NCBI GenBank assembly: GCA_964576115.1
Contig: CAZNUA010000001.1
Coordinates: 179,172-199,171, forward strand
Length of the DNA stretch: 20,000 bases
Direction of reading: 5' to 3'
Source: an uncultured Gemmatimonadota bacterium
GTDB lineage: Bacteria > Blakebacterota > Blakebacteria > Blakebacterales > Blakebacteraceae
Shown here: positions 3,454-19,869 of the stretch, in pieces
Layout of the letters: the number at the start of each line of letters is the position of its first letter
How positions within the stretch are numbered: position 1 is the stretch's first letter
Notes under the pieces: generated by a model
The model's database searches: none
What the model was told of the DNA's origin: nothing
What the model saw: only the letters and a program-made list of their open reading frames with translations
Program-made: the position numbers and the translations under genes

Positions 3454-3470
3454 GGCCGTGTGTGCCTCCT

Positions 3471-5084: not shown

Positions 5085-5639
5085 ATGGAAGACACAACCC
5101 TGGTGAAACGTGCAGCGGCGGGCGATCCCCGGTCGTTCGAGATCATCGTGCGGCGTCACGCCGGCGCGATCGTGAACTACCTGCGGCGTTTCCTGCCCGA
5201 TCCCGACGAGGCCGAGGACGCCGCTCAGGAGGTGTTTGTGTCGGCCTGGTGCAATCTCAGCCGTTTCGATCCCGATCGCGGGTTGTTCAAGAGCTGGCTC
5301 TTCCGGATCGCCACCAATACCGGTTTGAACGAGATCAAGCGCCGGGAAAGATCCGCGGCCAGGGAAGAGGCCGCGGCACCGCTGGTGCATCAGAGCCGCA
5401 GCGAACCGGGGCAGGGTAGCGAACAGCGCGAAATGACCCGGTTGCTGCAACCCGCCCTGCAGTCCCTGCCGGACGGCGAGCGTCAGATCATCCTGCTCTC
5501 CTACTACCACGAGCTGACCTACAGTCAGATCTCTCACATCCTCGAGATTCCGATCGGTACCGTGAAATCACGGATGCACAAGGCGATGGCGCGCCTGCGC
5601 ACCGAGCTGGAACCGATCAGGGAAGGTGAGTTGAAATGA
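5085..5639 (+). CDS. ECF RNA polymerase sigma-70 factor
   Basis: Region 2 AEDAAQEVFVSAW...FKSWLFRIATN and region 4 LPDGERQIILLSYYHELTYSQISHILEIPIGTVKSRMHKA. It is the C-terminal part of ORF 3600..5639; true start ATG 5085 after AGGACGAGG. Confidence 0.95.
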   Translation: MEDTTLVKRAAAGDPRSFEIIVRRHAGAIVNYLRRFLPDPDEAEDAAQEVFVSAWCNLSRFDPDRGLFKSWLFRIATNTGLNEIKRRERSAAREEAAAPLVHQSRSEPGQGSEQREMTRLLQPALQSLPDGERQIILLSYYHELTYSQISHILEIPIGTVKSRMHKAMARLRTELEPIREGELK

Positions 5640-6847
5640 AACACCCCACTGCGGCGGAACTGACCGATCTGGAACGCGGCGAACTGCCCATCGAACGGGC
5701 CCGGGAGATCCGCGACCATCTGGAAAAATGTGAGGCGTGCCGGAGGGAATGGGAGGCCATGCAGAATGTGGCCCGGGAGCTGGCGACGTGGGAAGATGAA
5801 CCGGTGTCGACAGCCTTCGTGACCTCGACCATGAACGCCATCGCGCGAACCGATTCCACTCGGGCTCCGGACGGGCGCAGGACCGCTTTCGGCTGGTTGC
5901 GGCGGGTTTCGGTCGCTGCGGCAGCCGTGGCGGTCTCGCTGCTCTTTCAGGCCTTCGTCTGGAATCCTCTCGATACTCCCCGCTCCTTCCGGGCAATCTT
6001 CGACCTGACTCCGGAAGCGGCCGCCCTGAGCGCCGGAGCGGCTTTGCCCGACACGATCCTGGTTCTGACCGTACATCCCGACGGGAAGGTGAGTACCGAG
6101 CTGCTGGGTGAAGAGATCGGCGAACTCGAAGATCTCATCCCCCGGATCATCGAGCGAGCCGGCGAACGCGACATCAGGACCGTGCTCCTGCTCGGGAGCG
6201 ATCCCGAGGGAACGATCACGATCGACCGGAGCGACCTGGCGCCCCTGCTCGAAGAACTGGATATCGAGCAGGTCACGGCCGGAGCCGGCGTCGTCCTCAT
6301 CGCCGGCCGGGGTGACGTGGTGGCCCGGATCGGAGTGCCGATCGAGTACATCATCACGACGGTTCCCCGGATCGAGGGGCAGATTGTCCAGATCGATATC
6401 GCCGACTCGCTCGTTTCCCGCGCCGAGGCGGCACAGGCTGTCCGTGCCGCTCTGGTCCTCTCGCGGGCCGACTCGTTGCGCGATACCGGCGCGTTCGCGG
6501 TCGAGATGCGCTACGCACGCGGGGAAGAGAGACCGGTCGTGCATGTCATCCGACCCCGACTCGAAGTCCTGCCACGGTCCGAACCGGCTGCGGCACTGCA
6601 CGACAGCCTGTTGACCCCGCAACGGCTTCTGATCACCGTGAACGAGGCGGGCGAGATCGTCACCAGCTGGTCCACTCTGCCGCTCGAGGATTTCCGCGAC
6701 ATGGCCGGCCGGATCATCACATCCCTGGGAGATATCCCGATCCTCTTGCTGATCCCCGAAGGTTCAGAGGACCGCGAGTCGATTCTGTTTCAGATTCTGG
6801 AGGAGGCCGGCGGGACGAAGATCACCGTCAGACGGATCAAGAAGTGA
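5636..6847 (+). CDS. Zinc-finger (zf-HC2/ZAS) anti-sigma factor with one transmembrane helix and ExbD/TolR-like extracytoplasmic repeats
   Basis: HLEKCEAC (HxxxCxxC); ATGA overlap with the sigma stop; TM segment VSVAAAAVAVSLLFQAFVW; C-terminal segments resemble ExbD periplasmic domains. Confidence 0.8.
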   Translation: MKHPTAAELTDLERGELPIERAREIRDHLEKCEACRREWEAMQNVARELATWEDEPVSTAFVTSTMNAIARTDSTRAPDGRRTAFGWLRRVSVAAAAVAVSLLFQAFVWNPLDTPRSFRAIFDLTPEAAALSAGAALPDTILVLTVHPDGKVSTELLGEEIGELEDLIPRIIERAGERDIRTVLLLGSDPEGTITIDRSDLAPLLEELDIEQVTAGAGVVLIAGRGDVVARIGVPIEYIITTVPRIEGQIVQIDIADSLVSRAEAAQAVRAALVLSRADSLRDTGAFAVEMRYARGEERPVVHVIRPRLEVLPRSEPAAALHDSLLTPQRLLITVNEAGEIVTSWSTLPLEDFRDMAGRIITSLGDIPILLLIPEGSEDRESILFQILEEAGGTKITVRRIKK

Positions 6848-6866
6848 CCTGTCGAATCGGCGAATT

Positions 6867-6890
6867 CCCGGACTGACGAGTACGTCCGGG
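6867..6890. other. Hairpin just downstream of the anti-sigma stop
   Basis: CCCGGAC-(10 nt)-GTCCGGG inverted repeat. Confidence 0.45.
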
Positions 6891-6919
6891 GTGAGGGAAG
6901 GGAACGAAACGGGCGGGCA

Positions 6920-6949
6920 CCGGAGCTGCGCCGGTTGACGCAGCTCCGG
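6920..6949. terminator. Perfect 11-bp GC hairpin, possible terminator or 3' stability element
   Basis: CCGGAGCTGCG-CCGGTTGA-CGCAGCTCCGG; no adjacent U-tract, so a terminator role is uncertain. Confidence 0.45.
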
Positions 6950-6960
6950 GCCGGTAAAGC

Positions 6961-7045
6961 GAAAATAGAACTGCCGGGAACGACCTCCCACACTGCCTTC
7001 CTCCCCTAAGCACTGCGGTGTCCCCGGCAGAGAGCTTCCGTCTTG
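6961..7045 (-). ncRNA. Candidate ~85-nt small RNA
   Basis: Directly downstream of minus-strand TTGACA-N17-TATTAA; CUGCCGGGGA/UUCCCGGCAG stem followed by UUCUAUUUU; interior carries GCAGUG...GGGAGG twice. Confidence 0.45.
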
Positions 7046-7080
7046 TTGATATTAATAGTTATAATTCCTATTATTGTCAA
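7046..7080. promoter_or_regulatory. Palindromic, overlapping bidirectional sigma70 promoter
   Basis: AT-rich island: plus strand TTGATA(7046)-N17-TATTAT(7069); minus strand TTGACA(7080)-N17-TATTAA(7057); 13-bp arms match at 11/13 as an inverted repeat. Confidence 0.7.
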
Positions 7081-7086
7081 GCTTCG

Positions 7087-7128
7087 GATGTAACCTCGGC
7101 GGTATCAGATGTAACCCCGGTGGTATCA
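7087..7128. repeat. Two tandem 21-bp direct repeats (putative operator)
   Basis: GATGTAACCTCGGCGGTATCA and GATGTAACCCCGGTGGTATCA, 19/21 identical. Confidence 0.85.
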
Positions 7129-7428
7129 AACCCTGTCCCCGCAGTCGATACCGATACCTCCGGGCGTTCGGGACCGAAACCTGTGTACCGGCCCCCGTGC
7201 CCGGCCGTCCGAGCCCTGCTCCGGAGTCCGGCTCGACCCCGGTAGCCGAACCCTTCCGGATGGGGTTATACTCACCTCCACCCGAACCGGCAGGGCGACT
7301 TCATGATCAGTCCATCTTCGACCCCCCCCGCTCCACCATTCCCCGCTTCGATACCCCCCTGTTGGGCGAATCGGTTATGACGATTTGCCCGGCACCCTCG
7401 GGAAACCGCTGAGCGGAGAGCACTACCG

Positions 7429-9903
7429 ATGAGCACCCTGACAGACAACCTCAGTTTCGGTCTCAAGCTGCTGCGCAAGGAAACCGCTTTCTCCGTTACC
7501 GCTCTGCTCACCCTGGCCCTCTGTATCGGGGCCAACAGCGCCGTCTTCAGTGCCGTCAACGCCCTGATGCTGCGCCCCCTGCCCTTTCCCGAACCGGAAC
7601 GGCTGGTCATGATCTACAACTCCTACCCCCGGGCCGAGGCTCCCCGTCTGGGCGCCTCGGTTCCCGATTATGTCGCCCGGCGGGCGGGGGTCGACGCGTT
7701 CGAGGATATCGGCGCTTTCTTCTACGGCGGTCTGACCGTAGGTGAGACGGGCCAGCCCGAACGTGCCTGGGCGATCTACATCACTCCCGCCCTGCTCACT
7801 TTGTTGCGGATCGAACCGGTCATCGGACGCAATTTCACCGAAGCCGAGACCGAGGCCGAGAACGCCCGGGTGGTGCTGCTGGGCTATGAATACTGGCACG
7901 AGCATTTCGAACGGTCCGACGATGTCCTGGGACAAACCCTGCGCATCGACGGCGAGAACTGGACCATCGTGGGTGTCCTGCCCGAGGGCTTCCGCCTGCT
8001 CGACGAACGGCAGGTCGATCTCTGGACCCCGATCCCCTTCACCCCCGCCGCCCGGTCGATCGACAACCTGCATACCAATTCCCTCTCACTGATCGCCCGG
8101 CTGCGGCCCGGAGCCACGATCGAGCAGGCCGAAGAACAGATCGCGGCCGTCAACAACCGGCTGCTGGAGCAGTGGCCCGCTCCCGACGGTCGTCAGATCA
8201 TGGAACGGGCCGGTTTTCACACCGAGGTCGTCGAGCTGCAGACAGCCCTGCTCGGCGACCGGCGACCGCTCTTCACCCTGCTCCTGGGCGGGGTTGTCCT
8301 GGTCCTGTTGATCGGTTGCGTGAATATCGCCCACCTGATGATCACCCGCCTCAATGTCCGGCAGCTCGAACTGGCCACCCGGATCGCCCTGGGCGCCAAT
8401 CGCCGGCAGATCTACACCCAGGTCGTGACCGAAAGCCTGCTGATCGCCGTCATCGGCGGTCTGCTGAGCCTGCTGGTGGCAATCGGCGCTCTGGCCCTGA
8501 TGCGCCTGCTCCGGTTCAACGAATTTCCCTTCGGCTACATGATCCGCCTCGATGTCACCACCCTGCTCTTCACCCTGCTCATTTCCATGCTGGCGGGGGT
8601 TTTTTTCGGGCTCGTGCCCGCCGCTCAGGTCATGCGCACCGACCTGCAGACGGTCTTTCGATTCGACGGCCGGAGTGTGACCGCCGACCGGGGAGCGATC
8701 CGGAACCGGAACCTGATGGCGATCATACAGGTGGCGCTCGCCTTCGTGCTGCTCACCGGGGCGGGGCTTCTGGTTCTGAGTTTCTCGCGGCTCATCAGGG
8801 TCGATCCCGGTTTCACCGATCCCGCCTCGGTCCTGCACGGCTTTATCGACCTGCCTGCGGCACGCTATCCCGACCAGGAATCATGCCTTGCATTCTCCGA
8901 CGAGCTGCTGGCCGAAATGCGTGCCCTGCCGGGGGTCCGCGAGGCAGCTCTCACCACCCGGCTTCCCTTCGTGACCTTCGAACTGACCTCGATTCTCTTT
9001 CCGGAAGGCTACGAAGACCGGGCTGATGAATCGCTCATCGCCCACCGCCGGGCATCCGTTTCGCCGGGCTATTTCAGCACTCTGGGAATTCCTCTTCTCC
9101 GCGGACGCGATTTCACTCCCGCCGACGATCTCGCCAGCCCCCGGGTGGTCATCGTCGACGAATGGCTCGCGGAGCGGTACTGGCCAGGAGAAAATCCCAT
9201 CGGTCAGCGTCTGCGCACGGGAACCCCGGGGCAGAAGATCGATGATGAAACCGAGCTGTTCACCGTCATCGGGGTGGTCGGGTCGGTCCGCTATGACGAT
9301 CTGGCCGAACCGGCGGCCGGCGGCCGCGGCGCCTACTACCTGCCCCTTCGTCAGTGGCCACAGGCCTTCATGGTCCCGGTCCTGCGGGTCGACGGGGAAC
9401 CGATGGCCCTGGCCAGGCCGCTGCAGGAACGGATCGTCGAGATCGATCCCGACCTGCCGTTCTACTTTCCGACCGCCTACGACGAACGGCTGGCCGACAG
9501 CACCCTGGAACGCCGCATTCCCATGGTGCTGCTCATCGTTTTCGCCGCCCTGGCTCTTTTCCTGTGCGCAGTCGGCCTCTATGGTGTGCTGGCGTACGGG
9601 GTAACGCAGCGCACCCGGGAGCTGGGCATCCGTCTGGCGGTGGGCAGCACCCACTCCGAAATTTTCCGTCTGATCATCGTCGACGGTCTGCGCCTGCTCG
9701 GGATCGGGCTGGCAATCGGGATCGTTCTGGCCCTGGTCCTGCTGCGCATCATCCGCAGCCTGCTCTTCGCCGTAGCGCCCACCAACCTGACGGTCTTCGT
9801 CTTCATCACCCTTCTGCTCTCGACCGTGACCCTGGTGGCCTGCATCATCCCGGCTCGTCGGGCTACACGGATCAATCCGGTCTCGGCTCTCAAACAGGAA
9901 TGA
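7429..9903 (+). CDS. ADOP-type duplicated MacB/FtsX ABC permease (orphan, no ATPase nearby)
   Basis: LTLALCIGANSAVFS..ALMLRPLPFPEPERLV, LLIGCVNIAHL..ELATRIALGA, RVDPGF, VTQRTRELGIRLAVG, PARRATRINP: two MacB-PCD/FtsX modules; GGAG RBS. Confidence 0.93.
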   Translation: MSTLTDNLSFGLKLLRKETAFSVTALLTLALCIGANSAVFSAVNALMLRPLPFPEPERLVMIYNSYPRAEAPRLGASVPDYVARRAGVDAFEDIGAFFYGGLTVGETGQPERAWAIYITPALLTLLRIEPVIGRNFTEAETEAENARVVLLGYEYWHEHFERSDDVLGQTLRIDGENWTIVGVLPEGFRLLDERQVDLWTPIPFTPAARSIDNLHTNSLSLIARLRPGATIEQAEEQIAAVNNRLLEQWPAPDGRQIMERAGFHTEVVELQTALLGDRRPLFTLLLGGVVLVLLIGCVNIAHLMITRLNVRQLELATRIALGANRRQIYTQVVTESLLIAVIGGLLSLLVAIGALALMRLLRFNEFPFGYMIRLDVTTLLFTLLISMLAGVFFGLVPAAQVMRTDLQTVFRFDGRSVTADRGAIRNRNLMAIIQVALAFVLLTGAGLLVLSFSRLIRVDPGFTDPASVLHGFIDLPAARYPDQESCLAFSDELLAEMRALPGVREAALTTRLPFVTFELTSILFPEGYEDRADESLIAHRRASVSPGYFSTLGIPLLRGRDFTPADDLASPRVVIVDEWLAERYWPGENPIGQRLRTGTPGQKIDDETELFTVIGVVGSVRYDDLAEPAAGGRGAYYLPLRQWPQAFMVPVLRVDGEPMALARPLQERIVEIDPDLPFYFPTAYDERLADSTLERRIPMVLLIVFAALALFLCAVGLYGVLAYGVTQRTRELGIRLAVGSTHSEIFRLIIVDGLRLLGIGLAIGIVLALVLLRIIRSLLFAVAPTNLTVFVFITLLLSTVTLVACIIPARRATRINPVSALKQE

Positions 9904-10061
9904 TACGCCACACATCTCCAGCCGGGAGGGCATCTGAGGCGCAACGGGGCACGGAAAGGACTGTCAGGAGCCACACCGGAGTGGCATGTTAGGATCGCAT
10001 TGTCGGGACGTACGGAAGGCACCCTGGAGAATCGAACTCCGGGCAGCGAGGGGACACTGTC

Positions 10062-10991
10062 ATGACGACCGACCTGGTGCGGCTCAAGAGCTTCCTCTAT
10101 GCCGCCGAGCAGATGAGTTTCACCGAAGCGGCCCGGCTGCTGCACCTGACCCAGCCAACGGTCAGCCACCACATCAAGGGGCTGGAGCAGGAACTGGGAG
10201 TCAGTCTCTTCGACCGCACCGGCGCCCGGCTGCGCCTGACCGACGCCGGCCGGTTTCTGCTGCCCCGGGCCCGCAAGATCGTCCGTCAGTACAACAGCAT
10301 GCAGGAATTGATGGCCTCGCTCGAAGAGGATACGGTCGGTCACCTGCGTATCGCCTGCAGCACGACCTGCGGTAAGTACCTGCTGCCCCAGTTCGCGGCC
10401 CGCTTCAAGGAACGTCACCCCGGGGTCGAGGTGACGATCTTTTCCTGCACCTCGGAAGACATCGTCCCCCGCCTGCTGGGGGGAGAGGCCGAACTGGGCG
10501 TGGTCAGCTATGAAGCCCGCCAGCAGGGAATCGACGCCCAGGAGTTCTTCGTCGACGCCATCTCGCTGCTCGTCCCCACCGAGCACCCCTGGACGCGCTG
10601 GCCGGCCGTCGATCCAACCGACCTGCTCGAAGAGAAGATCATCATCCGGGAGCCCACCTCGGGCACCCTGCGAGTGATGCTTTCGGAGCTGGCTAAGCAC
10701 AGCCTCTCGCTCGACGACCTCGACATCTTCCTCGAACTGGGGAACGCCGAGGCGATCGTCATGACGATCGCAGCCGGTTTCGGGGTCAGTTTCGTTTCGC
10801 GTCTGGCCGCCGCCTGCAGCCGGAACCGGGGTGAGGTGATCGAAGTGCCTGTGGCCGGTCTGCAGCTCAGACGCCAGATTTATATGATCCGCCGTTCATT
10901 GGAGACACCGGTACCCGCCCGGGAGGCGTTCTGGGAGTTCATCCACCACCCGGCCAATTACGACCTGCTGCTCCTGCCCGAAGCCGATTGA
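10062..10991 (+). CDS. LysR-family regulator, CysL/YeiE-like effector domain
   Basis: HTH SFTEAARLLHLTQPTVSHHIKGLE; IACSTTCGKYLLP, REPTSGT and ELGNAEAI match the CysL-like pattern (GASTT, REPGSGT, ELGSTEAI). Confidence 0.93.
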   Translation: MTTDLVRLKSFLYAAEQMSFTEAARLLHLTQPTVSHHIKGLEQELGVSLFDRTGARLRLTDAGRFLLPRARKIVRQYNSMQELMASLEEDTVGHLRIACSTTCGKYLLPQFAARFKERHPGVEVTIFSCTSEDIVPRLLGGEAELGVVSYEARQQGIDAQEFFVDAISLLVPTEHPWTRWPAVDPTDLLEEKIIIREPTSGTLRVMLSELAKHSLSLDDLDIFLELGNAEAIVMTIAAGFGVSFVSRLAAACSRNRGEVIEVPVAGLQLRRQIYMIRRSLETPVPAREAFWEFIHHPANYDLLLLPEAD

Positions 10992-10992
10992 G

Positions 10993-11092
10993 NNNNNNNN
11001 NNNNNNNNNNNNNNNNNNNNNNNNNNNNNNNNNNNNNNNNNNNNNNNNNNNNNNNNNNNNNNNNNNNNNNNNNNNNNNNNNNNNNNNNNNNN
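10993..11092. other. Assembly gap (100 N, probably a placeholder length)
   Basis: Run of exactly 100 N between two convergent stop codons. Confidence 0.99.
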
Positions 11093-11095
11093 CGT

Positions 11096-11461
11096 CTAGA
11101 AAACGAGCGAGAGCGTGGCGCCCTGAGCCTCGAGCAGGAAGGAGGGCGCGTTCATGACCTCCACCCCGTCGCGCACGTCTTCGGGGGCGATGTCCTTGGC
11201 CTCGTAGGCCAGCTCGCAGAGGACGATGCGACCGCCGAGTTCGAGAATGGTGTTGAACATCTCGACCGGGTCGGGCAGTCCCTTGGTGCCCTGCCGCTTC
11301 TCCAGTTCGCCCTTGACCAGCGCCGGCGCTCCGGCGGGGCAGAAGAAGATGAGCACCTCGTCATCCAGGCTGAGAGCCGAGGATCCCATGATCAGGGTGG
11401 GAAATAAGCCGCCGGCAGCATCGTTGCAGAAGATCACGGTCTTGCCTGTCTCTTCGCTCAC
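11096..11461 (-). CDS. dsrE: DsrE/DsrF-like family protein (putative sulfur carrier)
   Basis: EVLIFFCPAG..ALVKG, LGGRIVLCELA (conserved Cys), DGVEVMNAPSFL and terminal SLVF; GTG start with AAGGAG RBS. Symbol denotes the family, not a proven orthologue. Confidence 0.8.
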   Translation of the reverse strand: MSEETGKTVIFCNDAAGGLFPTLIMGSSALSLDDEVLIFFCPAGAPALVKGELEKRQGTKGLPDPVEMFNTILELGGRIVLCELAYEAKDIAPEDVRDGVEVMNAPSFLLEAQGATLSLVF

Positions 11462-11514
11462 AGTCTTTTCTCCTTGATCGGTTTTCGCCCTCTTGTGCGG
11501 GGCTCTGAGCCGGT

Positions 11515-11811
11515 CTACTCCGGCAGGGCGTAGAGGTAGTACTCCCCGGAATCGTCCATCCCGGTTTCAACGATGAGATCATACTTCTTCATGGCAGTGA
11601 CATGCCAGAGAACCTGGTCGGAGGGCAAGCCGGTTGCGGCCGCCAGTTCGGGAATGCTCTTGGCACCCTCTTTGAGAACTTTTCGCAGCTGCTTGCGCAG
11701 CGCGTTCTGTTCCTTGACCAGCACCTGGGTCCGGGCGACCGAGTCGGCGTTCTGTTCCCGCAGGCCGGCCAGGAAGGCCGCGCGCTCCTTGGCGTCTTCC
11801 TTCTCACTCAT
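11515..11811 (-). CDS. Small winged-helix protein translationally coupled to hdrA
   Basis: KSIPELAAATGLPSDQVLWHVTAMKKYDLIVE HTH plus wing; ATGA overlap with the hdrA stop; GAGG RBS. Confidence 0.8.
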   Translation of the reverse strand: MSEKEDAKERAAFLAGLREQNADSVARTQVLVKEQNALRKQLRKVLKEGAKSIPELAAATGLPSDQVLWHVTAMKKYDLIVETGMDDSGEYYLYALPE

Positions 11812-13862
11812 GCGCTCACCTCGATTCCGGGCAGATCCTCAACAATGGCATCGATCATGGCCTCGTACTGGTCCAGGCTGAAGCCGAGCAGGTCGATCGC
11901 CCGTGTGGGACAGGCACTGACACAGGCGCCGCAGCCCTTGCAGTTGGCCGGGGTGACTTCGGCCCGCTTCACGGTCTGGCCGTCGATCTGGACGTCGATC
12001 AGCGCCAGGGCGTCGTTCACGGGGCAGATTTCGATGCAGGTTCCGGTTCCGTTGCAGCGTTGCATGTCGACCCGGGCCACGAACGGCTCGAGTTCGACTC
12101 CACCCGAACGCAGGAGCACGGCCACCTTGGCGGCTGCGGCCGAGGCTGCCGCCGAACTCTCCTGAACGGTCATCGGCCCCTGGGCGGTCCCGGCCAGGAC
12201 GATCCCCGCCACGGCGGTCTCGACCGGCCGCAGCTTGGGATGAACCTCGGCCAGGAAACGATCGCTGCCCGGGGAGACGTTGAAGAGATCGTGCAGGTCG
12301 GCGATCGGGGTCGGCATCATGCCGACCGCCAGGACGACCAGGTCGACCGGGACCTCGATCTCGGTTCCTCCATCGGTGAGATAGTCGTTCACCTTCACCA
12401 CCAGCCCCGATCCCTTGCCGTCCGGATCGGCGCTGACTTCGGGCAGTTCTTCGGCCATATAGCGCAGGAAGAGCACCCCGTTGCGGGCCGCCCGGGTGTA
12501 CATATCCTCATGGCCCCGCCCGTACGTGCGGATGTCCTGGTAGACACTGAAAACCCTGGTGTCGGGGAAGCGCTCCCGGATCACGTTGGCCGTACTCATC
12601 ACGGCCGAACAGCAGACCCGCGAGCAGTAGTCGTTGACCTCGCCGTCGTCCTGCGGCTCGTTGATCCCCTCGACCTGCCGGCTGCCGACACAGTGGATCA
12701 TCGCGATCGAGCGCACCGGTCGTCCGTTCAGTTCCAACCGGCCGCCGGTGGGGCCGTCGGGAGTCAGCATGCGCTCGAGTTGGGGCAAGGTCACGACCCC
12801 CTCGAGTTCGCCGTAACCGTACTCACCCTTGCGCGGCTCGTAAGGCGTAAAGCCGGTAGCCAGGACTATCGCGCCGGCGACCAGTTCGAACTCCTCATCG
12901 GCCTCGTCGAGCGAAATACCGGTTACCCCTTCGACTTTCAGACACTCACCGCAGCGGGTGCAGTTCTCCCAGTCAATGGCGGGAGTCGCGGGGTAGCACC
13001 CCTCATAGGGCCGGTAGATCGCCTTGCGCTCGGTCAGGTTGTAGTTGAAGGGATCGGGCGCGCTCTCGGGGCAGGCCGCCATGGCTGCCTCCAGACCGGT
13101 GGCATTCTCCGCAACTCCCCGCGACCGGCGTCGCAGCCCGATCTCGAAGTTGCCCACATAGCCCGCCACCGAGGTAACCTCGGTCGAGGTGTGAACGGTG
13201 ATCTTCTCCTCGGCCAGCACTTTCTCGATCAGACCGTGCAGTTCCTCGCGGGCATTGGTGTCCCGGGGGAAGATGTGATCGAGCATCGACAAGCGGCCGC
13301 CGAGGAAGGGTGAGCGCTCGATGAGGGTGGCCTCGAGACCGTTGTGAGCCAGTTCGAGGGCGGTGCGCAGTCCGGCCACTCCCCCCCCCACGACCAGGGC
13401 GTGGCGCTCGGCCGAGAGTTCGATCGATTCGAGCGGCTCGAGACCGCGGGCCTTGGCGATCCCCGCCCGCATCAGGCGAATGGCTTTAAGAGTCGCTTCT
13501 TCGGGATGGTCGTGGTGCACCCAGCTGTCCTGCTCGCGCAGCCCCACGTGGTAAAAGAGATAGGGGTTCAGACCGGCCCGGGTCACCGTGCCGCGGAAGG
13601 TCAGCTCGTGCAGCGAAGGAGCGCAGGCGCCGACGACGACCCGGTTGATGCCCTTCTCACGGATGTCCTCATCGATCATGCCCTGCCCCGGATCGGAGCA
13701 CATGAAGATGTAGGAGCGGGAAACCACCACGTCGGGTTCGTCGGCCAGCGCTTCGGCAACCTTTTCAACATCGACCACATCGCCGATGTTGCCGCCGCAG
13801 GTGCAGACGTAGACGCCGATCCGCGGCTCGTCAGTCTGGGGCTGGGATGTCGGCTCGGTCAT
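11808..13862 (-). CDS. hdrA: Heterodisulfide reductase subunit A family flavoprotein (long, 684 aa)
   Basis: GVYVCTCGGNI, FMCSDPGQ, GACAP, GGGVAG, HCVGSR..YCSRVCC, DIRTYG, EVHPKLRPVET, C-terminal ferredoxin CKGCGACVSACP. Confidence 0.95.
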   Translation of the reverse strand: MTEPTSQPQTDEPRIGVYVCTCGGNIGDVVDVEKVAEALADEPDVVVSRSYIFMCSDPGQGMIDEDIREKGINRVVVGACAPSLHELTFRGTVTRAGLNPYLFYHVGLREQDSWVHHDHPEEATLKAIRLMRAGIAKARGLEPLESIELSAERHALVVGGGVAGLRTALELAHNGLEATLIERSPFLGGRLSMLDHIFPRDTNAREELHGLIEKVLAEEKITVHTSTEVTSVAGYVGNFEIGLRRRSRGVAENATGLEAAMAACPESAPDPFNYNLTERKAIYRPYEGCYPATPAIDWENCTRCGECLKVEGVTGISLDEADEEFELVAGAIVLATGFTPYEPRKGEYGYGELEGVVTLPQLERMLTPDGPTGGRLELNGRPVRSIAMIHCVGSRQVEGINEPQDDGEVNDYCSRVCCSAVMSTANVIRERFPDTRVFSVYQDIRTYGRGHEDMYTRAARNGVLFLRYMAEELPEVSADPDGKGSGLVVKVNDYLTDGGTEIEVPVDLVVLAVGMMPTPIADLHDLFNVSPGSDRFLAEVHPKLRPVETAVAGIVLAGTAQGPMTVQESSAAASAAAAKVAVLLRSGGVELEPFVARVDMQRCNGTGTCIEICPVNDALALIDVQIDGQTVKRAEVTPANCKGCGACVSACPTRAIDLLGFSLDQYEAMIDAIVEDLPGIEVSA

Positions 13863-15226
13863 GACGTGCTCCTCTCAGCGCTGACGGCGGCTTCCGCCGG
13901 TGCTGTAGCGGCCCCTCCGGTTTCGATCCAGGCGGCTGCCGCTCCCGCCGCCGCACTGGCCATGACGATACTGTCGACAATGTCCATCGGGGCGGTGGCC
14001 GTACCGGTCGCGAAGATGCCCGGTTGCTCCGTCAGACAGGGAGAGATACTGAAATCCGGTGTGTCCATGAATCCGTCCAGATCGTCGGCGGACACCCCGC
14101 AGAGAGTCTCAGCGTTGTAGGAAGGCACCATGCCGACCGAGAGGACGACCAGATCGTGCGTGTCCTCGACCAGACGGTTCTCATCGACCAGTTCGACCCG
14201 CACGACGGGATTCTGATTCTCGTCTTCGGTGATCCGGGCCACCTTGCCCTTGACGAACTCGATCCCCATCGCTTTGGCGTTCTGGTAGAACTGCTCGTAT
14301 CCCTTCCCGAAGGTCCGGATATCCATGTAATAAATCTTGATCTCGGCCATCGGTAGCGCGCCAGAGAGCAGCATGGCCTGCTTGATGGCGTACATGCAGC
14401 AGACCCGGCTGCAGTACTCCACTCCCAGGCTCACATCACGCGATCCGGCGCACTGTATGTACGCAATCGAATCGGGCTGCTTGCCGTCGGAGGGGCGCAG
14501 GACGTGGCCGTAGGGACCGGTCGGCGCCAGCAGGCGCTCCATGGTCAGACCGTCGATGACGTTTAGGATCTCCCCGCCGCCGTATTCGGCCTTGGCGTCG
14601 GTCGGAGTGATTTCGTACCCGGTGGCCAGGACGACGGTCTTGGCCGAGAGTTCGATCTGTTCGGGCTGCTGGGCCAGATCGACCGCCCCGGGCGGACAGG
14701 CCTGCTCGCACTTGCCGCAGAGCAGGCAATGTTCCATCTCGAGCACCGCGATCTGGGGAATGGCCGTAGAGAAAGGTACGTAGACGGCCCGGTGGGCGGT
14801 CAGATTGGAATCGAAATCGTGCGGCAGATCGACGGGACAGACCAGTTCGCACATGCGGCAGCCGGTGCAGGTATCGGGATTCACATAGCGCGGTTTCTGC
14901 AGGATCCCGGCCGTAAAGCCGTCGGCTGTGCGCTGGATCGTCTGCAACTCGCACCAGGTGAACAGAGTGATGTTGGGGTGATGGGCGACGGCCGCCATCT
15001 TCGGGGTGGTGATACAGCTGCAGCAGTCCAGGGTCGGGAAGACCTTGCTGAGCGCGATCATCTTCCCCCCGATGCTGGCTTCTTTCTCCACCAGAGTGAC
15101 CGCATAGCCCTGATCGGCCAGGTCGAGTGCCGTCTGCATTCCGGCGATCCCGCCCCCGACGACCAGGGCATCGGTGTCCATGCGTGTGACGTTCATGTGT
15201 GGCACAACCTCCTGGCTGTCGGCCAT
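13859..15226 (-). CDS. hdrA: Heterodisulfide reductase subunit A family flavoprotein (short, 455 aa)
   Basis: GGGIAG, KVFPTLDCCSC, inserted ferredoxin CTGCRMCELVCP / CLLCGKCEQACP, QCAGSRD..YCSRVCCMYAIK, YMDIRTFGK; ATGA overlap with the next hdrA. Confidence 0.95.
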   Translation of the reverse strand: MADSQEVVPHMNVTRMDTDALVVGGGIAGMQTALDLADQGYAVTLVEKEASIGGKMIALSKVFPTLDCCSCITTPKMAAVAHHPNITLFTWCELQTIQRTADGFTAGILQKPRYVNPDTCTGCRMCELVCPVDLPHDFDSNLTAHRAVYVPFSTAIPQIAVLEMEHCLLCGKCEQACPPGAVDLAQQPEQIELSAKTVVLATGYEITPTDAKAEYGGGEILNVIDGLTMERLLAPTGPYGHVLRPSDGKQPDSIAYIQCAGSRDVSLGVEYCSRVCCMYAIKQAMLLSGALPMAEIKIYYMDIRTFGKGYEQFYQNAKAMGIEFVKGKVARITEDENQNPVVRVELVDENRLVEDTHDLVVLSVGMVPSYNAETLCGVSADDLDGFMDTPDFSISPCLTEQPGIFATGTATAPMDIVDSIVMASAAAGAAAAWIETGGAATAPAEAAVSAERSTS

Positions 15227-15235
15227 GACGGTCCC

Positions 15236-15673
15236 CTACGCAGCCGGCGCCTCGGGCAGGGGTTGCTGGACGGGACCGATCTCATCCAGCAGTTCTCGCA
15301 TTTCGCGGACTTCCTTCAGGAACGGCTTGGTGCACACCGTACAGATCGCCGTCAGTCGGAGCCGTCGGGTGTCTATCTCCTTTTCCTTCATGAGGGGATA
15401 GGTCTTGTTTATCAGCTCCGCCGTACGCTCCGCACCCCCCGGGTAGGGGCAGTCCGAGCCGCTGTACATGACGATGATGGCGTCGATGCCGCGCTCGAAA
15501 GCCCGCAGGTAGAAACTCTCGGGGAACATGCAGGGGCAGACCACCGGCAGGACGTAGACGTCGGGGGTGTACTCGGCGTGCAGCTGCCCGACCGCGTCGG
15601 CTCCGGCGTATCCGCCGGAGAGTGTGGCCAGGATCAGGATTTTCGGTTGCCGCTTTCCGGCACTCTCAGCCAT
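15236..15673 (-). CDS. mvhD: MvhD/FlpD-like iron-sulfur subunit with an atypical Cys pattern
   Basis: PKIL..GYAGADAVG..Y..V.C..AFERGIDAIIV..DCPY..RRLRL..F follows the MvhD family pattern; adjacent to hdrA. Confidence 0.85.
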   Translation of the reverse strand: MAESAGKRQPKILILATLSGGYAGADAVGQLHAEYTPDVYVLPVVCPCMFPESFYLRAFERGIDAIIVMYSGSDCPYPGGAERTAELINKTYPLMKEKEIDTRRLRLTAICTVCTKPFLKEVREMRELLDEIGPVQQPLPEAPAA

Positions 15674-15674
15674 A

Positions 15675-15810
15675 GCGCTTCCCTCGGTTCAAAGCGGTTA
15701 ATGCGGGCCCCGGGCCGCTCCGGCGAGGGAGCGAGGATGCTCCCACCCCCTGTGGCAGGGGGCACCGGAAGCGGCCCGGGTTTTGGAAAGGCAGACGAAC
15801 CGGGAAGCGC
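15675..15810 (-). promoter_or_regulatory. Structured intercistronic RNA sequestering the mvhD ribosome-binding site
   Basis: 15797-15810 pairs with 15675-15690 (14 bp, 2-nt bulge) and encloses a three-way junction at 15709-15780. Confidence 0.6.
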
Positions 15811-15811
15811 G

Positions 15812-16066
15812 TTACTTGTTACGACGCAGGAAGAGGCGGTCGTACCCTTCAGCCTCCAGGGCTCCCAGGAAGTCATGACCGACCTTGTCGGCCCACCGCG
15901 GGATGTCGTTCTTGGTGTTGGCGTCACCACTCCAGATCTCGAGAACTTCCCCGACCTTGATGGCACCGATGCCCTTCTTGGCTTCGAGCAGGGGGCCGGG
16001 ACAGGCGCTGCCTCGGGCGTCGACGACTTTCGCTGCCTGCAGGGTGGTGAGATCCACGTCGGACAT
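15812..16066 (-). CDS. tusA: TusA/SirA-family sulfurtransferase (84 aa)
   Basis: VDARGSACPGPLL (CPxP), GEVLEI..D...DIPRWA..GH; start ATG 16066 after GGAG, preferred over 16156. Confidence 0.93.
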   Translation of the reverse strand: MSDVDLTTLQAAKVVDARGSACPGPLLEAKKGIGAIKVGEVLEIWSGDANTKNDIPRWADKVGHDFLGALEAEGYDRLFLRRNK

Positions 16067-16167
16067 GTTCACGCTCCAGGTTGCATGGGGTCTCAGCGGC
16101 CCGCCCTGGGCGGTACCGCCGGTTGTGACGCTTATACTCATATCATCCCGGAGCACGAAGTAATTAG

Positions 16168-16205
16168 GATATTGTATCTATATCGCCCCATAGAAAATAT
16201 CTATG
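16168..16205. promoter_or_regulatory. Tandem LysR boxes (T-N11-A) upstream of the tusA-hdr operon
   Basis: CATAG-N7-CTATG (16189-16205) and GATAT-N7-ATATC (16168-16184), centres 21 bp apart in an AT-rich patch. Confidence 0.75.
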
Positions 16206-16272: not shown

Positions 16273-16872
16273 TCAGTAGCGACCGAAGCGCAGGGTCAGC
16301 CCGACCGTATAACCGCTCAGGTCGGCGGCCGCCAGACCGTAGGTCGTCTCGGTCACATCATCGACTCCGATGACGGAGCGGTACCCCGCTCCGACCGCGA
16401 CCCGGAAGTGCTGCGTGACGTTCAGGCAGTAATGGGCCGAGGGTTCGAAAACCCAGATGGTATCGTCGTGCTGGTTCTCTTCGAGGTCGGTCCCGACCTC
16501 GTTGAAGTTGATCCCGCCGATTCCGATCAGGGCGTCGATGTACCAGTGGGTCAGCCGGTCGGGATCGTGCAGGTATTCGAGCAGCAAACCGCCGTACCCG
16601 AGCTGCAGCTCATACATCGTTCCGGCTACCTCAACCTCGTGTTCGGTCACCAGGCCCCAGCCCCCGCCGCCGATGGCGATGGTCTTGCCGATGACCCAGC
16701 CGCCCAGACCGCCCATGAGGAGACCGTCGGAATCCAGAATCTGTGTATACATCAGGTTGGGACCGCCGAACCCGCCGTGTTCGGTACCGCGCCCCAGCAA
16801 TGTCTCCTGCGCCCCGGCCGTGACCGGGACAAGCAACGCCACCAGACAGAGAGATGTCATGATCCGCTTCAT
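16273..16872 (-). CDS. Outer-membrane beta-barrel protein of unknown function (199 aa)
   Basis: Signal peptide MKRIMTSLCLVALLVPVTAGA; Gly/aromatic alternating strands; C-terminal VGLTLRFGRY; GGAGG RBS before ATG 16872. Confidence 0.75.
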   Translation of the reverse strand: MKRIMTSLCLVALLVPVTAGAQETLLGRGTEHGGFGGPNLMYTQILDSDGLLMGGLGGWVIGKTIAIGGGGWGLVTEHEVEVAGTMYELQLGYGGLLLEYLHDPDRLTHWYIDALIGIGGINFNEVGTDLEENQHDDTIWVFEPSAHYCLNVTQHFRVAVGAGYRSVIGVDDVTETTYGLAAADLSGYTVGLTLRFGRY

Positions 16873-16954
16873 CAGTAACCTCCGGAAGAGAACTGTCAAT
16901 ACATAAAGGACCGGCTCAGCGGTCCCCTCTATGAGTATATACGCGGCCGGAGGG

Positions 16955-18490
16955 TCATGGGGTGCCGGCGACTGCCGCCGCCCACTCGGGGAAAACCGCA
17001 AAATCGATCCCGAAGACATGGGTTCCGACCAGGTAGAAGAGCACCGTGATCACGAGCGCCCCGATCAGATTCAGGACCACTCCGACCCGGGCCATTTCGG
17101 CGATCCGGATCCGGCCGCTCCCGAAGACGATGGCGTTGGGAGGAGTAGCCACCGGCATCATGAAAGCACACGAGGCCGAGAGCGTGGCGGGGACCATCAG
17201 GAGCAGGGGATGCACCCGCATGGCCACGGCCACGGCGGCCAGGATCGGCAGGATCATTTCGGTCGTGGCCGTATTGGAGGTCAGTTCGGTCAGGAAAGTC
17301 AGGGTCAGACAGATCAGGATGGTCATCACGAAGGGGGAGGTGCCCGCCAGGCCGCCGAACTGATTGCCGATCAGGGTCGAGAGACCGGTGACCTGAAAAC
17401 CCTGGGCCAGGGCGAAGCCGCCCCCGAAGAGCAGCACGATCCCCCACGGCAGACGCGGGATCACATCGCGGTCCATGACCGAGGCGCTCTGTGCGTCGGG
17501 ACTGCGGGTAGGAATGAAGAAGAGGACCATGGCCATGGCGATCGCCACCGTACCGTCGTCGAGCAGTTCGGGAAAGGGCAACAGCCCGGACCAGCCCGGC
17601 AGGCTGAAGAGTCCGAAGTCGAGCGGTTTGCGGAAGACCCAGAGCACGGCCGTCAGGGCGAAGACGACCAGGACGGCCTTCTCCTCGAAGCTGATCGGAC
17701 CGAGGCGCTCGTACTCGGTCTCGACGATCTGGGGATTCACTGCTATCTCGGATCCGGTCCGGTAGAAGATCCGGGTCAGCACGAACCAGATCACGGCCAG
17801 CATCAGCACACAGACAGGGATGCCGAGCAGGATCCAGCGCCCGAATTCGACCGCCGGGGCGTCGGGGAACATGATCTGGAAGATACGGGTGAAACTGAGG
17901 TTGGGAGGGGTGCCGACCAGGGTGGCGATCCCCCCCACCGAGCAGGCATAGGCGATCCCGAGCATCAGCGCCACCGAGAAGGTGTGCACTTTCTCGCGCC
18001 CGAATTCCTCCTCGAGCTGCAGGATGATGGCCATCCCGATCGGGATCATCATGACCGCCGTGGCGGTGTTGGAGATCCACATCGAGAGGAAGGCGGCCGC
18101 GATCATGAAACCGAGGATGATCCGCGACGGACTGCCGCCAATGAGACGGATGATGGTCAGGGCGATGCGCCGGTGCAGGTTCCACTTCTCCATCGTCAGG
18201 GCGATCATGAAGCCGCCGATGAAGAGGAAGATGGTGGAGTTGACGTAGATCGGAGCGGTGGCCTTGCCGCTCAGGATCCCCAGGACCGGGTAGAGCACGA
18301 GCGGCACCAGAGAAGTGGCGAAGAGGGGGATGGCATCGGTGATCCACCAGGTGGCCATCAGCGCCGCCACCGCGGCCAGACGGGTCGCGGCCGGATTACC
18401 CGGTTCGAGGTCGCAGGCGAGCAGGATCAGGAAGAGGAGCGGACCAAGTGCCAGACCGATTTTCTGAGTCGTCGTGCGCGAAGCTTTCAC
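16955..18490 (-). CDS. SLC13/DASS Na+:dicarboxylate or sulfate symporter
   Basis: WWITDAIP, LSMWISNTAT, GGIATLVGTPPN, TELTSNTAT, FMMPVATPPNA motifs; GTG 18490 overlaps the upstream stop (GTGA). Confidence 0.93.
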   Translation of the reverse strand: MKASRTTTQKIGLALGPLLFLILLACDLEPGNPAATRLAAVAALMATWWITDAIPLFATSLVPLVLYPVLGILSGKATAPIYVNSTIFLFIGGFMIALTMEKWNLHRRIALTIIRLIGGSPSRIILGFMIAAAFLSMWISNTATAVMMIPIGMAIILQLEEEFGREKVHTFSVALMLGIAYACSVGGIATLVGTPPNLSFTRIFQIMFPDAPAVEFGRWILLGIPVCVLMLAVIWFVLTRIFYRTGSEIAVNPQIVETEYERLGPISFEEKAVLVVFALTAVLWVFRKPLDFGLFSLPGWSGLLPFPELLDDGTVAIAMAMVLFFIPTRSPDAQSASVMDRDVIPRLPWGIVLLFGGGFALAQGFQVTGLSTLIGNQFGGLAGTSPFVMTILICLTLTFLTELTSNTATTEMILPILAAVAVAMRVHPLLLMVPATLSASCAFMMPVATPPNAIVFGSGRIRIAEMARVGVVLNLIGALVITVLFYLVGTHVFGIDFAVFPEWAAAVAGTP

Positions 18491-19869
18491 ACCGATTCCG
18501 GTTCCTTTCCTTTCCGGGTCATGAGCCAGTAGACCGGAAGGCCGGCCAGCAGAATGACGAGCCCGATCACGGCGTTGCGCCGCTGGACCGGGTCGAACAG
18601 AACGTAGGCGTCGACGAAGAGCAGGGTGAGGATGAACAGGGCCGGGGTGACGGGATAGCCGGGACAGCGGAAGGGACGGGGACGTTCGGGCCGGCTGCGG
18701 CGCAGACGGTACACCGCAGCCACGGTCAGAGCGTAGAAGATCAGCGAGGCGAAAACCACGTATTCGGTGATGTCCTTGAAAGTCTTGAGGACCACCACCA
18801 GTACGATGGCCCACAGTGCCTGGGCCCAGATCGCGACATACGGGGTGCGCCAGCGGGGATGCACCCGCATCAGCGGCCGGACACCGAGCCCGTCGCGGGC
18901 CATGGCATAGAAGGCCCGGGGACTGGAGAGCAGGCTGGGATTGGCCGCCCCGAAGACCGACAGGCAGATGAGCAGGCTCAGCAGAACTCCGGCGCCGGAA
19001 CCGAACATGCGCTGGACCGCTGTCAGCGGCACCTGCTCGTCGGTCGCAAAGGTGCGCATTTCGTCGATCGGAACCAGGTGAAAGTAGACCGCATTGACCA
19101 GCACATAGGTCACGATCAGGATCACGATCCCGATGATGAGTCCCCGCGGCAGGTCGCGGGCTGGATCGCGCAGCTCGGCGGCATTGAAGGTGACCTGGTA
19201 CCAGCCCTCATAAGCCCAGAAGATGGCCACGGCCGCCATCACCAGCCCCGAGATGAGCGAGACCGCCGGTTCGGTCGGGACCGGCTCGGGCACCACCGCA
19301 TCGGGACGGGTCAGCAGGAAGCCGGCGGCAACCAGCATGCCCAGGGCCGCCAGCTTGGCGAAGGTGGCCGTATTCTGCAGGATCGCCCCCCACCTGACCC
19401 CGTAGTGGTTGGTCAGGGCCAGAGTCAGGATCATGCCGGCGGCCACGGCGATCTGGGCCAGCTCGCTCATCGGCACCAGGCGGTTGGCGAAGCGGGTGAA
19501 GGCCACCGCCAGAGCGGCCATGGTGCCGGTGTTGATGACCAGCAGCAGGCACCAGCCGTAGAGGAAGGCCACCCCCCTACCCCACCCCTCGCGCAGGAAG
19601 GCGTACATCCCCCCCGCCTCGGGGAACATCGCCCCCAGCTCGCCGTAGGCGAAGGCTCCGAGCAGGACGATCAGGCCCAGGAAGACCCAGACGGCATAGG
19701 CCAGCAGCGGACTCGGCAGGGCCTGGGAAACGTTGAGCGGCTTCATGAAGATGCCCGAACCGATCACCGAGCCGACCACCACCATGACGACGCTGGTCAG
19801 GCCCAGGCAGCGCCTGAGTTCGAGTGTCTGTCCCTCGGGTTGAGCCACGGCGCACTCCGCGTTTTCCAT
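18487..19869 (-). CDS. APC-superfamily amino acid permease
   Basis: VGSVIGSGIF, ELGAMFPEAGGMYAFL, WAYEGW, AELRDPARDLP, PRAFYAMARDG, RPFRCPGYP; multiple transmembrane helices. Confidence 0.95.
   Translation of the reverse strand: MENAECAVAQPEGQTLELRRCLGLTSVVMVVVGSVIGSGIFMKPLNVSQALPSPLLAYAVWVFLGLIVLLGAFAYGELGAMFPEAGGMYAFLREGWGRGVAFLYGWCLLLVINTGTMAALAVAFTRFANRLVPMSELAQIAVAAGMILTLALTNHYGVRWGAILQNTATFAKLAALGMLVAAGFLLTRPDAVVPEPVPTEPAVSLISGLVMAAVAIFWAYEGWYQVTFNAAELRDPARDLPRGLIIGIVILIVTYVLVNAVYFHLVPIDEMRTFATDEQVPLTAVQRMFGSGAGVLLSLLICLSVFGAANPSLLSSPRAFYAMARDGLGVRPLMRVHPRWRTPYVAIWAQALWAIVLVVVLKTFKDITEYVVFASLIFYALTVAAVYRLRRSRPERPRPFRCPGYPVTPALFILTLLFVDAYVLFDPVQRRNAVIGLVILLAGLPVYWLMTRKGKEPESV

Follow-up and report, generated by a model that had tools for sequence, protein, structure and literature searches.

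The window analysed here, a stretch of 20,000 nucleotides (about 64% G+C) on contig CAZNUA010000001.1 (C1) of an uncultured Gemmatimonadota bacterium, carries on its minus strand an operon that joins genes for the sulfur carriers TusA and DsrE with genes for two HdrA-like flavoproteins. With a probability of roughly 0.6, this operon was interpreted as a derived, membrane-anchor-less and probably soluble variant of a widespread TusA/DsrE-linked 'type II Qmo'/Hdr-like module. As predicted from related sequences, the full module comprises TusA, an MvhD-like protein with a CxxC motif, a short HdrA, a long HdrA, a small winged helix-turn-helix (wHTH) protein, a QmoC-like haem/FeS membrane subunit (or HdrC plus HdrB), DsrE and a LysR regulator. 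What sets this window apart is that its QmoC gene has been lost. The interpretation is very likely in its structural and evolutionary aspects, and reductive sulfur chemistry of the module is proposed tentatively, at less than even odds.

Gene content of the operon and of related loci

The genome to which the window belongs (G000) is an assembly of 3.96 Mb in 144 contigs with 93.7% completeness. Six intact minus-strand open reading frames (ORFs) were located between positions 11096 and 16156, and the operon spans 11096-16066 when TusA is counted from its ATG. The order of the genes in the 5' to 3' direction of the operon was TusA, MvhD-like, HdrA455, HdrA684, wHTH and DsrE, and both the ORFs and their domains agreed with the single minus-strand unit described in an earlier note on this DNA. 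The features of the region were as follows.

10062-10991, plus strand: LysR-family regulator (Pfam HTH_1 and LysR_substrate), convergent with dsrE across the gap
10993-11092: scaffold gap of 100 N inside the dsrE-lysR intergenic region
11096-11461, minus strand: DsrE_2-family sulfur carrier of 121 amino acids (aa) (PF13686, 30.5 bits), with a GTG start and an AAGGAG ribosome-binding site
11462-11514, minus strand: wHTH-dsrE spacer of 53 bp, the slot where relatives have a QmoC-like gene of about 1.2 kb or hdrC plus hdrB
11515-11811, minus strand: small wHTH protein, 98 aa (HTH_20, E 7e-4)
11808-13862, minus strand: HdrA684, long HdrA-like flavoprotein, 684 aa (full-length alignment to 5odc_A, E 1e-160)
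13859-15226, minus strand: HdrA455, short HdrA-like flavoprotein of QmoA-like build, 455 aa (equivalent to 5odc_A residues 145-582, E 7e-118)
15236-15673, minus strand: MvhD/FlpD-like protein, 145 aa (FlpD, 64.5 bits)
15812-16066, minus strand: TusA, 84 aa from the conserved ATG (ORF 15812-16156, 114 aa; PF01206, 64.6 bits)
16165-16205, minus strand: pair of LysR-type boxes upstream of tusA, one a perfect palindrome, the other imperfect

The ATGA overlaps that had been noticed earlier were found at two junctions, each 4 bp long: hdrA455/hdrA684 at 13859-13862 and hdrA684/wHTH at 11808-11811. The LysR gene stops one base before the scaffold gap, and the end of dsrE lies three bases beyond it. 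The Pfam scan, which covered 25 window ORFs, revealed no CCG, [NiFe]-hydrogenase, Apr or QmoC-type domain in any of them, and tblastn of the window with QmoC-like, HdrC and HdrB queries matched only the ferredoxin motifs of the HdrA genes. The window was therefore without hdrB/C/D, mvhA/G, qmoC or apr, as had been stated.

Among species-representative genomes, at least 467 relatives of HdrA455 could be found; the 80 best loci, at 59-73% identity, were examined. These loci belonged mostly to metagenome-assembled genomes (MAGs) of Anaerolineae, with some from Planctomycetota, Desulfobacterota and others. The expectation that related clusters occur in other genomes was borne out, as the gene order recurred across these 80 loci; the commonest order on the tblastn map was TusA-MvhD-HdrA455-HdrA684-wHTH, a QmoC-like gene of about 1.2 kb, DsrE and a convergent LysR. 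The slot after the wHTH gene could be tested in 65 of the 80 loci, as 14 stop before the wHTH gene and one directly after it. A QmoC-like gene occupied the slot in 63 of these loci; in the remaining two (L083 and L087), HdrC and a CCG-domain HdrB replaced it, and no testable locus had neither. A dsrE gene directly following the wHTH gene was seen in 0 of the 65.

The slot gene encodes an N-terminal HdrC-like domain with 2x[4Fe-4S] and a multi-helix membrane domain. Its product matched the NCBIfam qmoC model (NF038018) over the full length with 194.6 bits, which is under the cut-off of 300, while a true QmoC encoded beside aprBA-qmoAB in a Desulfobacterota genome received 487.6 bits. A metagenome scan with the wHTH protein as query returned 26 loci, of which 22 carried QmoC after the wHTH gene, two ended at the wHTH gene, one gave a weak partial match, and one was L206. 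Among the metagenome loci that reach past the wHTH gene, QmoC was present in 22 of 23, the exception being L206, which represents the window's own population. QmoC and HdrCB are alternatives for one slot. The description 'HdrB/C-less', which the earlier note had given to the operon, holds for the window, but not for the family, since every testable genome locus carries QmoC-like or HdrC plus HdrB; the partner genes are consistently co-located in homologous clusters, a finding that the note itself had named as contrary to its proposal.

Loss of the QmoC gene in one genus

The assembly of the window's genome contains 85 runs of N, and since all of them are exactly 100 N long, they are conventional scaffold gaps. 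A contig of 209 letters in four public sequencing runs from three studies (X1-X4, one of which may be the source sample) bridged position 10992 to position 11093 with 149 letters in between; its overlap of 30 letters on each side, one fewer than the bridging rule applied demands, makes this strong, not formal, proof. A metagenome contig of 1002 bp with 97-99% protein identity (L206) also carried wHTH, DsrE and LysR without interruption, and the edges of its 45-bp dsrE-lysR spacer matched the letters at the edges of the gap in the window. The spacer is thus polymorphic, with 45 bp in L206 and about 153 bp in X1-X4, and a true spacer of 45-153 bp has room for no gene. Hidden hdrBC genes in the gap, which had been put forward as a finding that would speak against the earlier proposal, could accordingly be ruled out: closing the gap revealed nothing but the 149 letters of X1-X4 or the 45 bp of L206.

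The second genome of the same genus, a MAG of another species (G001; 580 contigs, 83% complete), likewise had its dsrE-lysR spacer interrupted by a 100-N gap. The 185 bp between that gap and the dsrE stop (L097:8216-8400) were found to be a dispersed intergenic repeat of about 160 bp, copies of which, 84-92% identical, occur on contigs C16, C59, C15, C2, C1, C55 and others of the window's genome. The presence of such a repeat in the spacer is probably why the assembly breaks at the same place in both genomes.

The layout without QmoC could be confirmed in G001, which has 75-86% protein identity, a 54-bp wHTH-dsrE spacer at the same place, and the same neighbours (a Na+/sulfate-symporter-family gene, orf248 and LysR). 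Moreover, the wHTH-dsrE junction in L206 was identical to the window letter for letter, and continuous contigs in X1-X4 spanned it; an assembly artefact at this junction is ruled out by these three lines of evidence. A search for RNA sequencing data holding positions 11093-12600 listed none. The form without QmoC was seen only in the window's own population and in this one species of the same genus, while two genomes of a different genus of the same family (g2) carried TusA-MvhD-HdrA-HdrA-wHTH-QmoC and so have kept QmoC.

In a quick maximum-likelihood tree of HdrA455, the window nested in a mainly Chloroflexota clade of 67 rows with a Shimodaira-Hasegawa-like approximate likelihood ratio test (SH-aLRT) support of 99, and the testable members of this clade carry QmoC. 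A copy from a genome of the same family (G004) and the window genome's own paralogue fell elsewhere in the tree. Because HdrA455 nests among QmoC-bearing clusters, the absence of QmoC appears as a secondary, genus-level loss. The RecA protein of the genome had best matches of 59-71% identity spread over many phyla, with no close Chloroflexota relative. The cluster is at least as Anaerolineae-like as this RecA is like that of any sampled genome, for which lateral transfer offers the simplest reading. Most likely, the cluster reached the lineage by lateral transfer, in either direction, with Chloroflexota-like bacteria as the other party; transfer followed by deletion of qmoC is the simplest history.

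The ratio of nonsynonymous to synonymous substitution rates (dN/dS) between the window species and G001 was 0.066-0.209 over seven genes (TusA 0.066; HdrA455 residues 1-320, 0.150; wHTH 0.151; DsrE 0.152; MvhD-like 0.169; LysR 0.175; HdrA684 0.209). Such values in two species that both lack QmoC indicate that the genes have been held by purifying selection since the loss. This selection in two species, together with a window that holds no hdrB/C/D or qmoC and a gap too small to supply them, is what may be said for the view of the earlier note that the operon is a self-contained, minimal bifurcating system in which, by design, persulfide bound to TusA/DsrE takes the place of the HdrB substrate. 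That view is very unlikely, given the QmoC-like or HdrC plus HdrB partners in all 65 testable genome loci, the QmoC in 22 of 23 metagenome loci, and the nesting of HdrA455 inside QmoC-bearing clusters, which points to a recent genus-level loss.

The selected genes may alternatively be in continued use because the window proteins dock onto a partner encoded elsewhere and so continue to act as a complex of the membrane or HdrB type. The genome search for hdrB/C/D that had been suggested earlier revealed CCG proteins on three contigs only (C55, C23 and C3) and none in the window. Contig C55 carries hdrA-hdrC-hdrB; C23 carries an HdrA-like fusion of 983 aa, a canonical MvhD and two CCG (HdrD-like) proteins; C3 carries a protein of 634 aa with Fer4_8 and CCG domains. 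A paralogous cluster was further located about 90 kb upstream of the window (C1:94.5-102.2 kb; L096 = C1:90000-106000, locus 4502-12898). It consists of HdrA627, a canonical MvhD (175 bits), an MvhG-like protein (Oxidored_q6), an MvhA-like [NiFe] large subunit, HdrA432, a wHTH protein, a QmoC-like protein and a HycI protease, and G001 carries the same hydrogenase-linked cluster. Its HdrA432 is 54% identical to HdrA455, its wHTH protein is 42-44% identical to that of the operon, and its QmoC-like protein scored 187.6 bits against NF038018. This paralogous cluster is a hydrogenase-linked Hdr/Qmo-type membrane complex without TusA or DsrE. Candidate partners therefore exist in the QmoC-like protein 90 kb away, the C55 HdrCB and the CCG proteins of C23, and the purifying selection fits such use. 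However, the paralogous QmoC-like protein shares only 44% identity with the QmoC-like protein of the module in a relative (L012) and has a full partner set of its own, and no sequence sign of cross-docking could be found, so that complementation in trans is considered rather unlikely.

Cofactor sites, sulfur carriers and regulation

The two HdrA proteins were aligned with the solved HdrA of Methanothermococcus thermolithotrophicus (PDB 5odc_A). HdrA455 retains the cysteines of the FPTxDCxxC, CxGSRD and YCSxVCC motifs, both CxxCxxCxxxCP motifs of the inserted ferredoxin domain (2x[4Fe-4S]) and the flavin adenine dinucleotide (FAD) domain, and lacks the N-terminal domain and the C-terminal ferredoxin domain; 13 of its 18 cysteines were invariant in 82-83 homologues. 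HdrA684 contains the N-terminal cluster domain, the FAD domain, a degenerate inserted ferredoxin domain and the C-terminal ferredoxin domain, with no fused MvhD. Missing from it are the DCxxC motif and the first of the inserted CxxCxxCxxxCP motifs; retained are C20/C22/C55/C80 at the N-terminus, C391/C413/C417/C418 of the CxGSR and YCSRVCC motifs, and seven cysteines of the C-terminal ferredoxin domain. The GxGxxG motif is present in both proteins and, for HdrA684, is invariant in 61 sequences. As the losses of cofactor sites are complementary, only the heterodimer would hold about one full HdrA-type cofactor set, not two. HdrA455 is 35% identical to the canonical QmoA encoded next to aprBA, and HdrA684 is 27% identical to aprBA-linked QmoB; in build, the short HdrA is QmoA-like and the long one QmoB-like without its MvhD domain.

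The MvhD-like protein is the most unusual part of the module, its canonical [2Fe-2S] cysteines being swapped for an invariant CxxC. It received 64.5 bits from the FlpD model compared to 175 bits for the canonical MvhD of the same genome. Compared with solved MvhD chains and the two canonical MvhDs of the genome, it has neither the N-terminal CxxC nor the GC of GCxxGDC, and the remaining canonical cysteine positions are variably kept in its homologues (C46 in 40/79, C48 in 14/79 and C75 in 34/79). The new CxxC (C111 and C114) was present in 78/78 homologues. The AICTVC motif occurred in every TusA-linked MvhD-like protein aligned, including one from Planctomycetota and one of the HdrCB type from Desulfobacterota, and was absent from the canonical MvhD and QmoB C-terminal domains aligned. 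Furthermore, among 59 near-full-length proteins taken from the best 150 of a search of 1.84 billion proteins, 18 had the CxxC motif, 14 had the canonical motif, and none had both. An AlphaFold2 model (predicted local distance difference test score (pLDDT) 84) placed the CxxC where strand 4 ends and helix 115-132 begins, on the sheet edge that also bears the loops following strands 1-3; it is in these loops that the alignments put the canonical cluster cysteines.

The start of TusA is most likely the ATG at 16066, with a GGAG 8 nt upstream; the start codon and the ribosome-binding site are conserved in G001. Its CPxP cysteine (Cys52 of the 114-aa ORF) was found in 75/75 homologues. In DsrE, Cys12 was conserved in 52/53, Cys41 in 49/53 and Cys82 in 53/53 homologues, and the nearest solved structure was the DsrE/DsrF-like 3mc3 (E 0.02). 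The link of TusA and DsrE to an HdrA-type flavoenzyme that had been proposed in the earlier note is upheld by this conservation and by the recurring gene order.

Twelve of the 80 loci carry a YeeE-family transporter gene between DsrE and LysR: L024 (11108-13399), L038, L046, L033, L049, L058, L060, L069, L070, L042, L052 and L064. The best NCBIfam match of the transporter, in the four of the 12 that were scanned, was the thiosulfate transporter TsuA, and an occasional importer of this kind fits the handling of thiosulfate-derived sulfur by DsrE and TusA. Most of the 12 loci also contain an extra DsrE, and L024 has a second TusA whose best match is YedF. The extra DsrE preceding YeeE formed a separate clade of 12 rows with a support of 100; the window DsrE falls outside this clade and is not the YeeE-associated form. 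The 93.7%-complete genome yielded no YeeE-family transporter, no DsrA and no AprA, the best TIGR02061 match scoring 25.7 bits against a cut-off of 641.75. A second sulfur-carrier cluster could be observed on contig C13 of this genome, which is without DsrAB (L205 = C13:50000-60000, locus 2581-6456); it encodes a Pyr_redox_2 flavoprotein (411 aa), a DUF1641 protein, a DsrC/TusE-family protein (115.5 bits), a DsrE_2 protein (131 bits) and an outer-membrane beta-barrel.

The wHTH gene comes after the long HdrA in every related locus that extends that far. An AlphaFold2 model (pLDDT 95.5) consisted of two long N-terminal helices and a winged helix, and the best PDB fold matches were ArsR/MarR regulators (E about 1e-3, template-modelling score about 0.5), which is a generic likeness. 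A homologue is also present between the HdrA455-like and QmoC-like genes of the hydrogenase-linked paralogous cluster, which argues for a role connected with the Hdr/Qmo core instead of one in sulfur sensing. A persulfide-sensing repressor of the SqrR/BigR type was rejected, as the window protein has no cysteine and cysteine stays below 50% at every aligned position in 69 homologues.

The double LysR box pointed out in the earlier note was found to consist of the T-N11-A palindrome CATAGATATTTTCTATG at 16189-16205 and a second, imperfect box at about 16165-16181, both of which are conserved in G001 within an otherwise diverged spacer. The genome of 3.96 Mb contains two copies of the exact ATAGA-N5-TCTAT box, against 0.45 expected, and only one of them is in the window. 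The tusA gene of G001 is likewise preceded by the exact box, as is the operon in 12 other related loci. In most of the complete related loci, DsrE is followed by a LysR gene in convergent orientation. The best NCBIfam match of the window LysR was NF040786, 'selenium metabolism-associated LysR', with 239.8 bits (cut-off 250), and the same family was the top match for 20/20 LysR homologues beside related clusters, six of them above the cut-off. LysR is a conserved module member and is predicted from these sequence features to control the operon via the T-N11-A box upstream of tusA. The second exact box of the genome lies 69 bp upstream of a gene for a MacB/FtsX-type permease (C79:1083; L204), and a paralogous MacB/FtsX-type permease gene lies directly before the LysR gene in the window (7429-9903); this coincidence could be due to chance, with 0.45 exact boxes expected.

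On the other side of the operon, upstream of tusA, orf248 (16273-17019, minus strand) encodes a glycine-rich secreted protein with no Pfam match that is conserved in G001, and a hairpin (CGGGCA-cctg-TGCCCG) comes after it. A Na+/sulfate-symporter-family (DASS) transporter is encoded at 16955-18814 (minus strand). Both neighbours are genus-specific and lie outside the module in other phyla. A possible paralogy of orf248 to the outer-membrane barrel next to the DsrC/DsrE_2 cluster of C13 was dismissed, as no similarity could be found. Positions 3-6847 of the window encode a DUF2961 protein, a flavin reductase, a PAS histidine kinase, a sulfatase, and an extracytoplasmic function (ECF) sigma factor with a zf-HC2 anti-sigma factor; such a set is typical of sediment bacteria that degrade polysaccharides and has no connection with the operon.

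Possible function and relation to known systems

Under the favoured interpretation, sulfane sulfur, as persulfide or derived from thiosulfate, would pass between DsrE and TusA and on to the complex, where the flavin and iron-sulfur chain of HdrA455 and HdrA684 would deliver two electrons and release sulfide. In ordinary members of the family, QmoC would couple the reaction to menaquinone, or HdrCB would provide a CCG-type thiol/disulfide site. In the genus of the window, the soluble unit would have to work with a cytoplasmic partner such as ferredoxin, or with a QmoC-like, HdrBC or HdrD-like protein borrowed from elsewhere in the genome. A more specific proposal, considered quite unlikely, is that catalysis throughout the family takes place at the CxxC of the MvhD-like protein, the CxxC taking sulfane sulfur from TusA/DsrE or forming a disulfide or trisulfide with them. 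The CxxC would then be reduced by the neighbouring iron-sulfur clusters of HdrA, as in ferredoxin:thioredoxin reductase or HdrB, in an MvhD fold that would have given up its own cluster. The MvhD-like protein, HdrA455 and HdrA684 would in that case form a self-sufficient, ferredoxin-linked and possibly bifurcating persulfide reductase, to which QmoC or HdrCB would be optional coupling modules, and the clean loss of QmoC under selection in this genus would be a natural experiment showing that self-sufficiency.

Several points weigh against the favoured interpretation. The HdrA455 tree came from a quick search of 83 rows with SH-aLRT support only and a midpoint root, and three of 85 loci were left out of it: L097 (split by a frameshift), L086 (truncated) and L099. 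The direction of the chemistry (reduction or oxidation) and its substrate are guesses from sequence. With no QmoC or HdrB, the window offers no recognised substrate or quinone site, and the soluble unit may therefore be incomplete alone. The wHTH protein as modelled resembles a DNA binder of the ArsR type and so need not be a subunit. The LysR family and the YedF-like extra TusA (in the one scanned) point to selenium as much as to sulfur, and selD is present in the genome. Finally, the HdrA455 orthologue of G001 (L097:11160-12529) is split into two frames near residue 321. This split may mark the beginning of decay, or it may be an error in a MAG of 83% completeness.

This frameshift, together with the missing electron-exit subunit of the module, would be in keeping with a cluster that became non-functional after the loss of QmoC and is heading to pseudogenisation. 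Such decay is highly improbable, as all six window genes are intact, dN/dS is 0.066-0.209, the LysR boxes and ribosome-binding sites are conserved, and both parts of the split G001 gene, which comes from a fragmented MAG, still share 70-83% identity with the window protein and contain no further stops.

The possibility of a module for the reduction or trafficking of carrier-bound selenium, for example to selenophosphate synthetase, with TusA and DsrE as selenium carriers, draws on the assignment of LysR to NF040786, on the extra TusA of L024, which scored best against YedF (72.6 bits, cut-off 79), and on the presence of selD in the genome (330 bits; C45:1973-2665, L198). The selD region lies inside an open frame of 918 aa, which suggests a fusion protein, and the genome probably uses selenium. 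However, the module's own TusA scores best as TusA, the accessory transporters reached 278-321 bits as TsuA against 43-127 bits with the selenium YedE models, no selD, selA or selB was linked to the module in the loci examined, and the name of NF040786 is based on genome association. A selenium role is accordingly regarded as improbable, and carrier-bound sulfur is retained as the favoured, tentative substrate.

Among known systems, canonical (type I) QmoABC-AprAB occurs in sulfate reducers and green sulfur bacteria. The module resembles it in its pair of a short and a long HdrA-like protein, in its MvhD module and in the QmoC-type subunit of the relatives. In contrast, the window has no aprBA and its neighbours are sulfur carriers instead of adenosine 5'-phosphosulfate (APS) reductase; moreover, canonical QmoB has MvhD fused at its C-terminus, whereas the MvhD-like protein of the window is encoded by a separate gene and is a CxxC protein without the cluster. 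According to passages of Neukirchen et al. 2023 (PMC10504309), HdrBC in place of QmoC is known for Qmo, and this replacement is mirrored in the module by the 63 QmoC and two HdrC plus HdrB loci. The same passages describe a 'type II' QmoABC, with HdrA-like QmoAB and a distinct QmoC, in Ammonifex degensii and 'Ca. Vulcanisaeta moutnovskia', which occurs in organisms with or without Dsr/Apr and whose role is unclear. Like the relatives of the window, type II Qmo as described there combines two HdrA-derived flavoproteins, nearer to methanogen HdrA than to bacterial QmoAB, with a QmoC-type subunit. Those passages make no mention of TusA, DsrE, a CxxC MvhD-like protein, wHTH or LysR in connection with it, nor does one supplementary file of the paper mention TusA or 'type II', and the window itself differs by having no QmoC at all.

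The MvhAGD-HdrABC complex of methanogens (5odc) is the best solved match for both HdrAs; HdrA684 has the domain order of HdrA, and an MvhD-fold gene lies alongside. Unlike that complex, the window lacks HdrB, HdrC and hydrogenase, splits the HdrA functions over two proteins, and encodes an MvhD-like protein without the canonical cluster cysteines. Of flavin-based electron bifurcation, the sequences show the FAD-binding GxGxxG motifs and no more. The sulfur-oxidising sHdr system with TusA, DsrE3 and rhodaneses, which according to the abstract of Tanabe et al. 2024 (PMC11094781) includes HdrB1/B2, C1/C2 and lipoate-binding proteins, is similar in that an Hdr-type complex is genetically tied to TusA and DsrE-family sulfur transferases, a carrier cascade that feeds a cytoplasmic enzyme. 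It differs in that the window has no HdrB or HdrC (no hdrC1B1A-hyp-C2B2 set; no search was made for LbpA) and in that sHdrA is short, PDB 6tjr matching only part of the window HdrAs (E about 5e-36). In the full-text literature outside subscription papers, no description of the TusA-MvhD-HdrA-HdrA-wHTH-QmoC-DsrE set could be found, and passages of PMC12142623, PMC13490349 and PMC6397845 likewise contained none.

The module combines sulfur carriers with electron-transfer proteins of the Hdr/Qmo type, and is found mostly in fermentative Anaerolineae, not in sulfate reducers. Its CxxC, in place of the cluster motif of MvhD, is a sequence signature that names a candidate active site. The window shows that its 'HdrB/C-less' appearance is the outcome of recent loss and not of design, and the natural deletion of QmoC under selection in two species suggests that the soluble part has either a function of its own or a partner in trans. 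If the module does reduce or oxidise carrier-bound sulfur, it would add a hitherto unrecognised route to the sulfur cycle of anoxic sediments.

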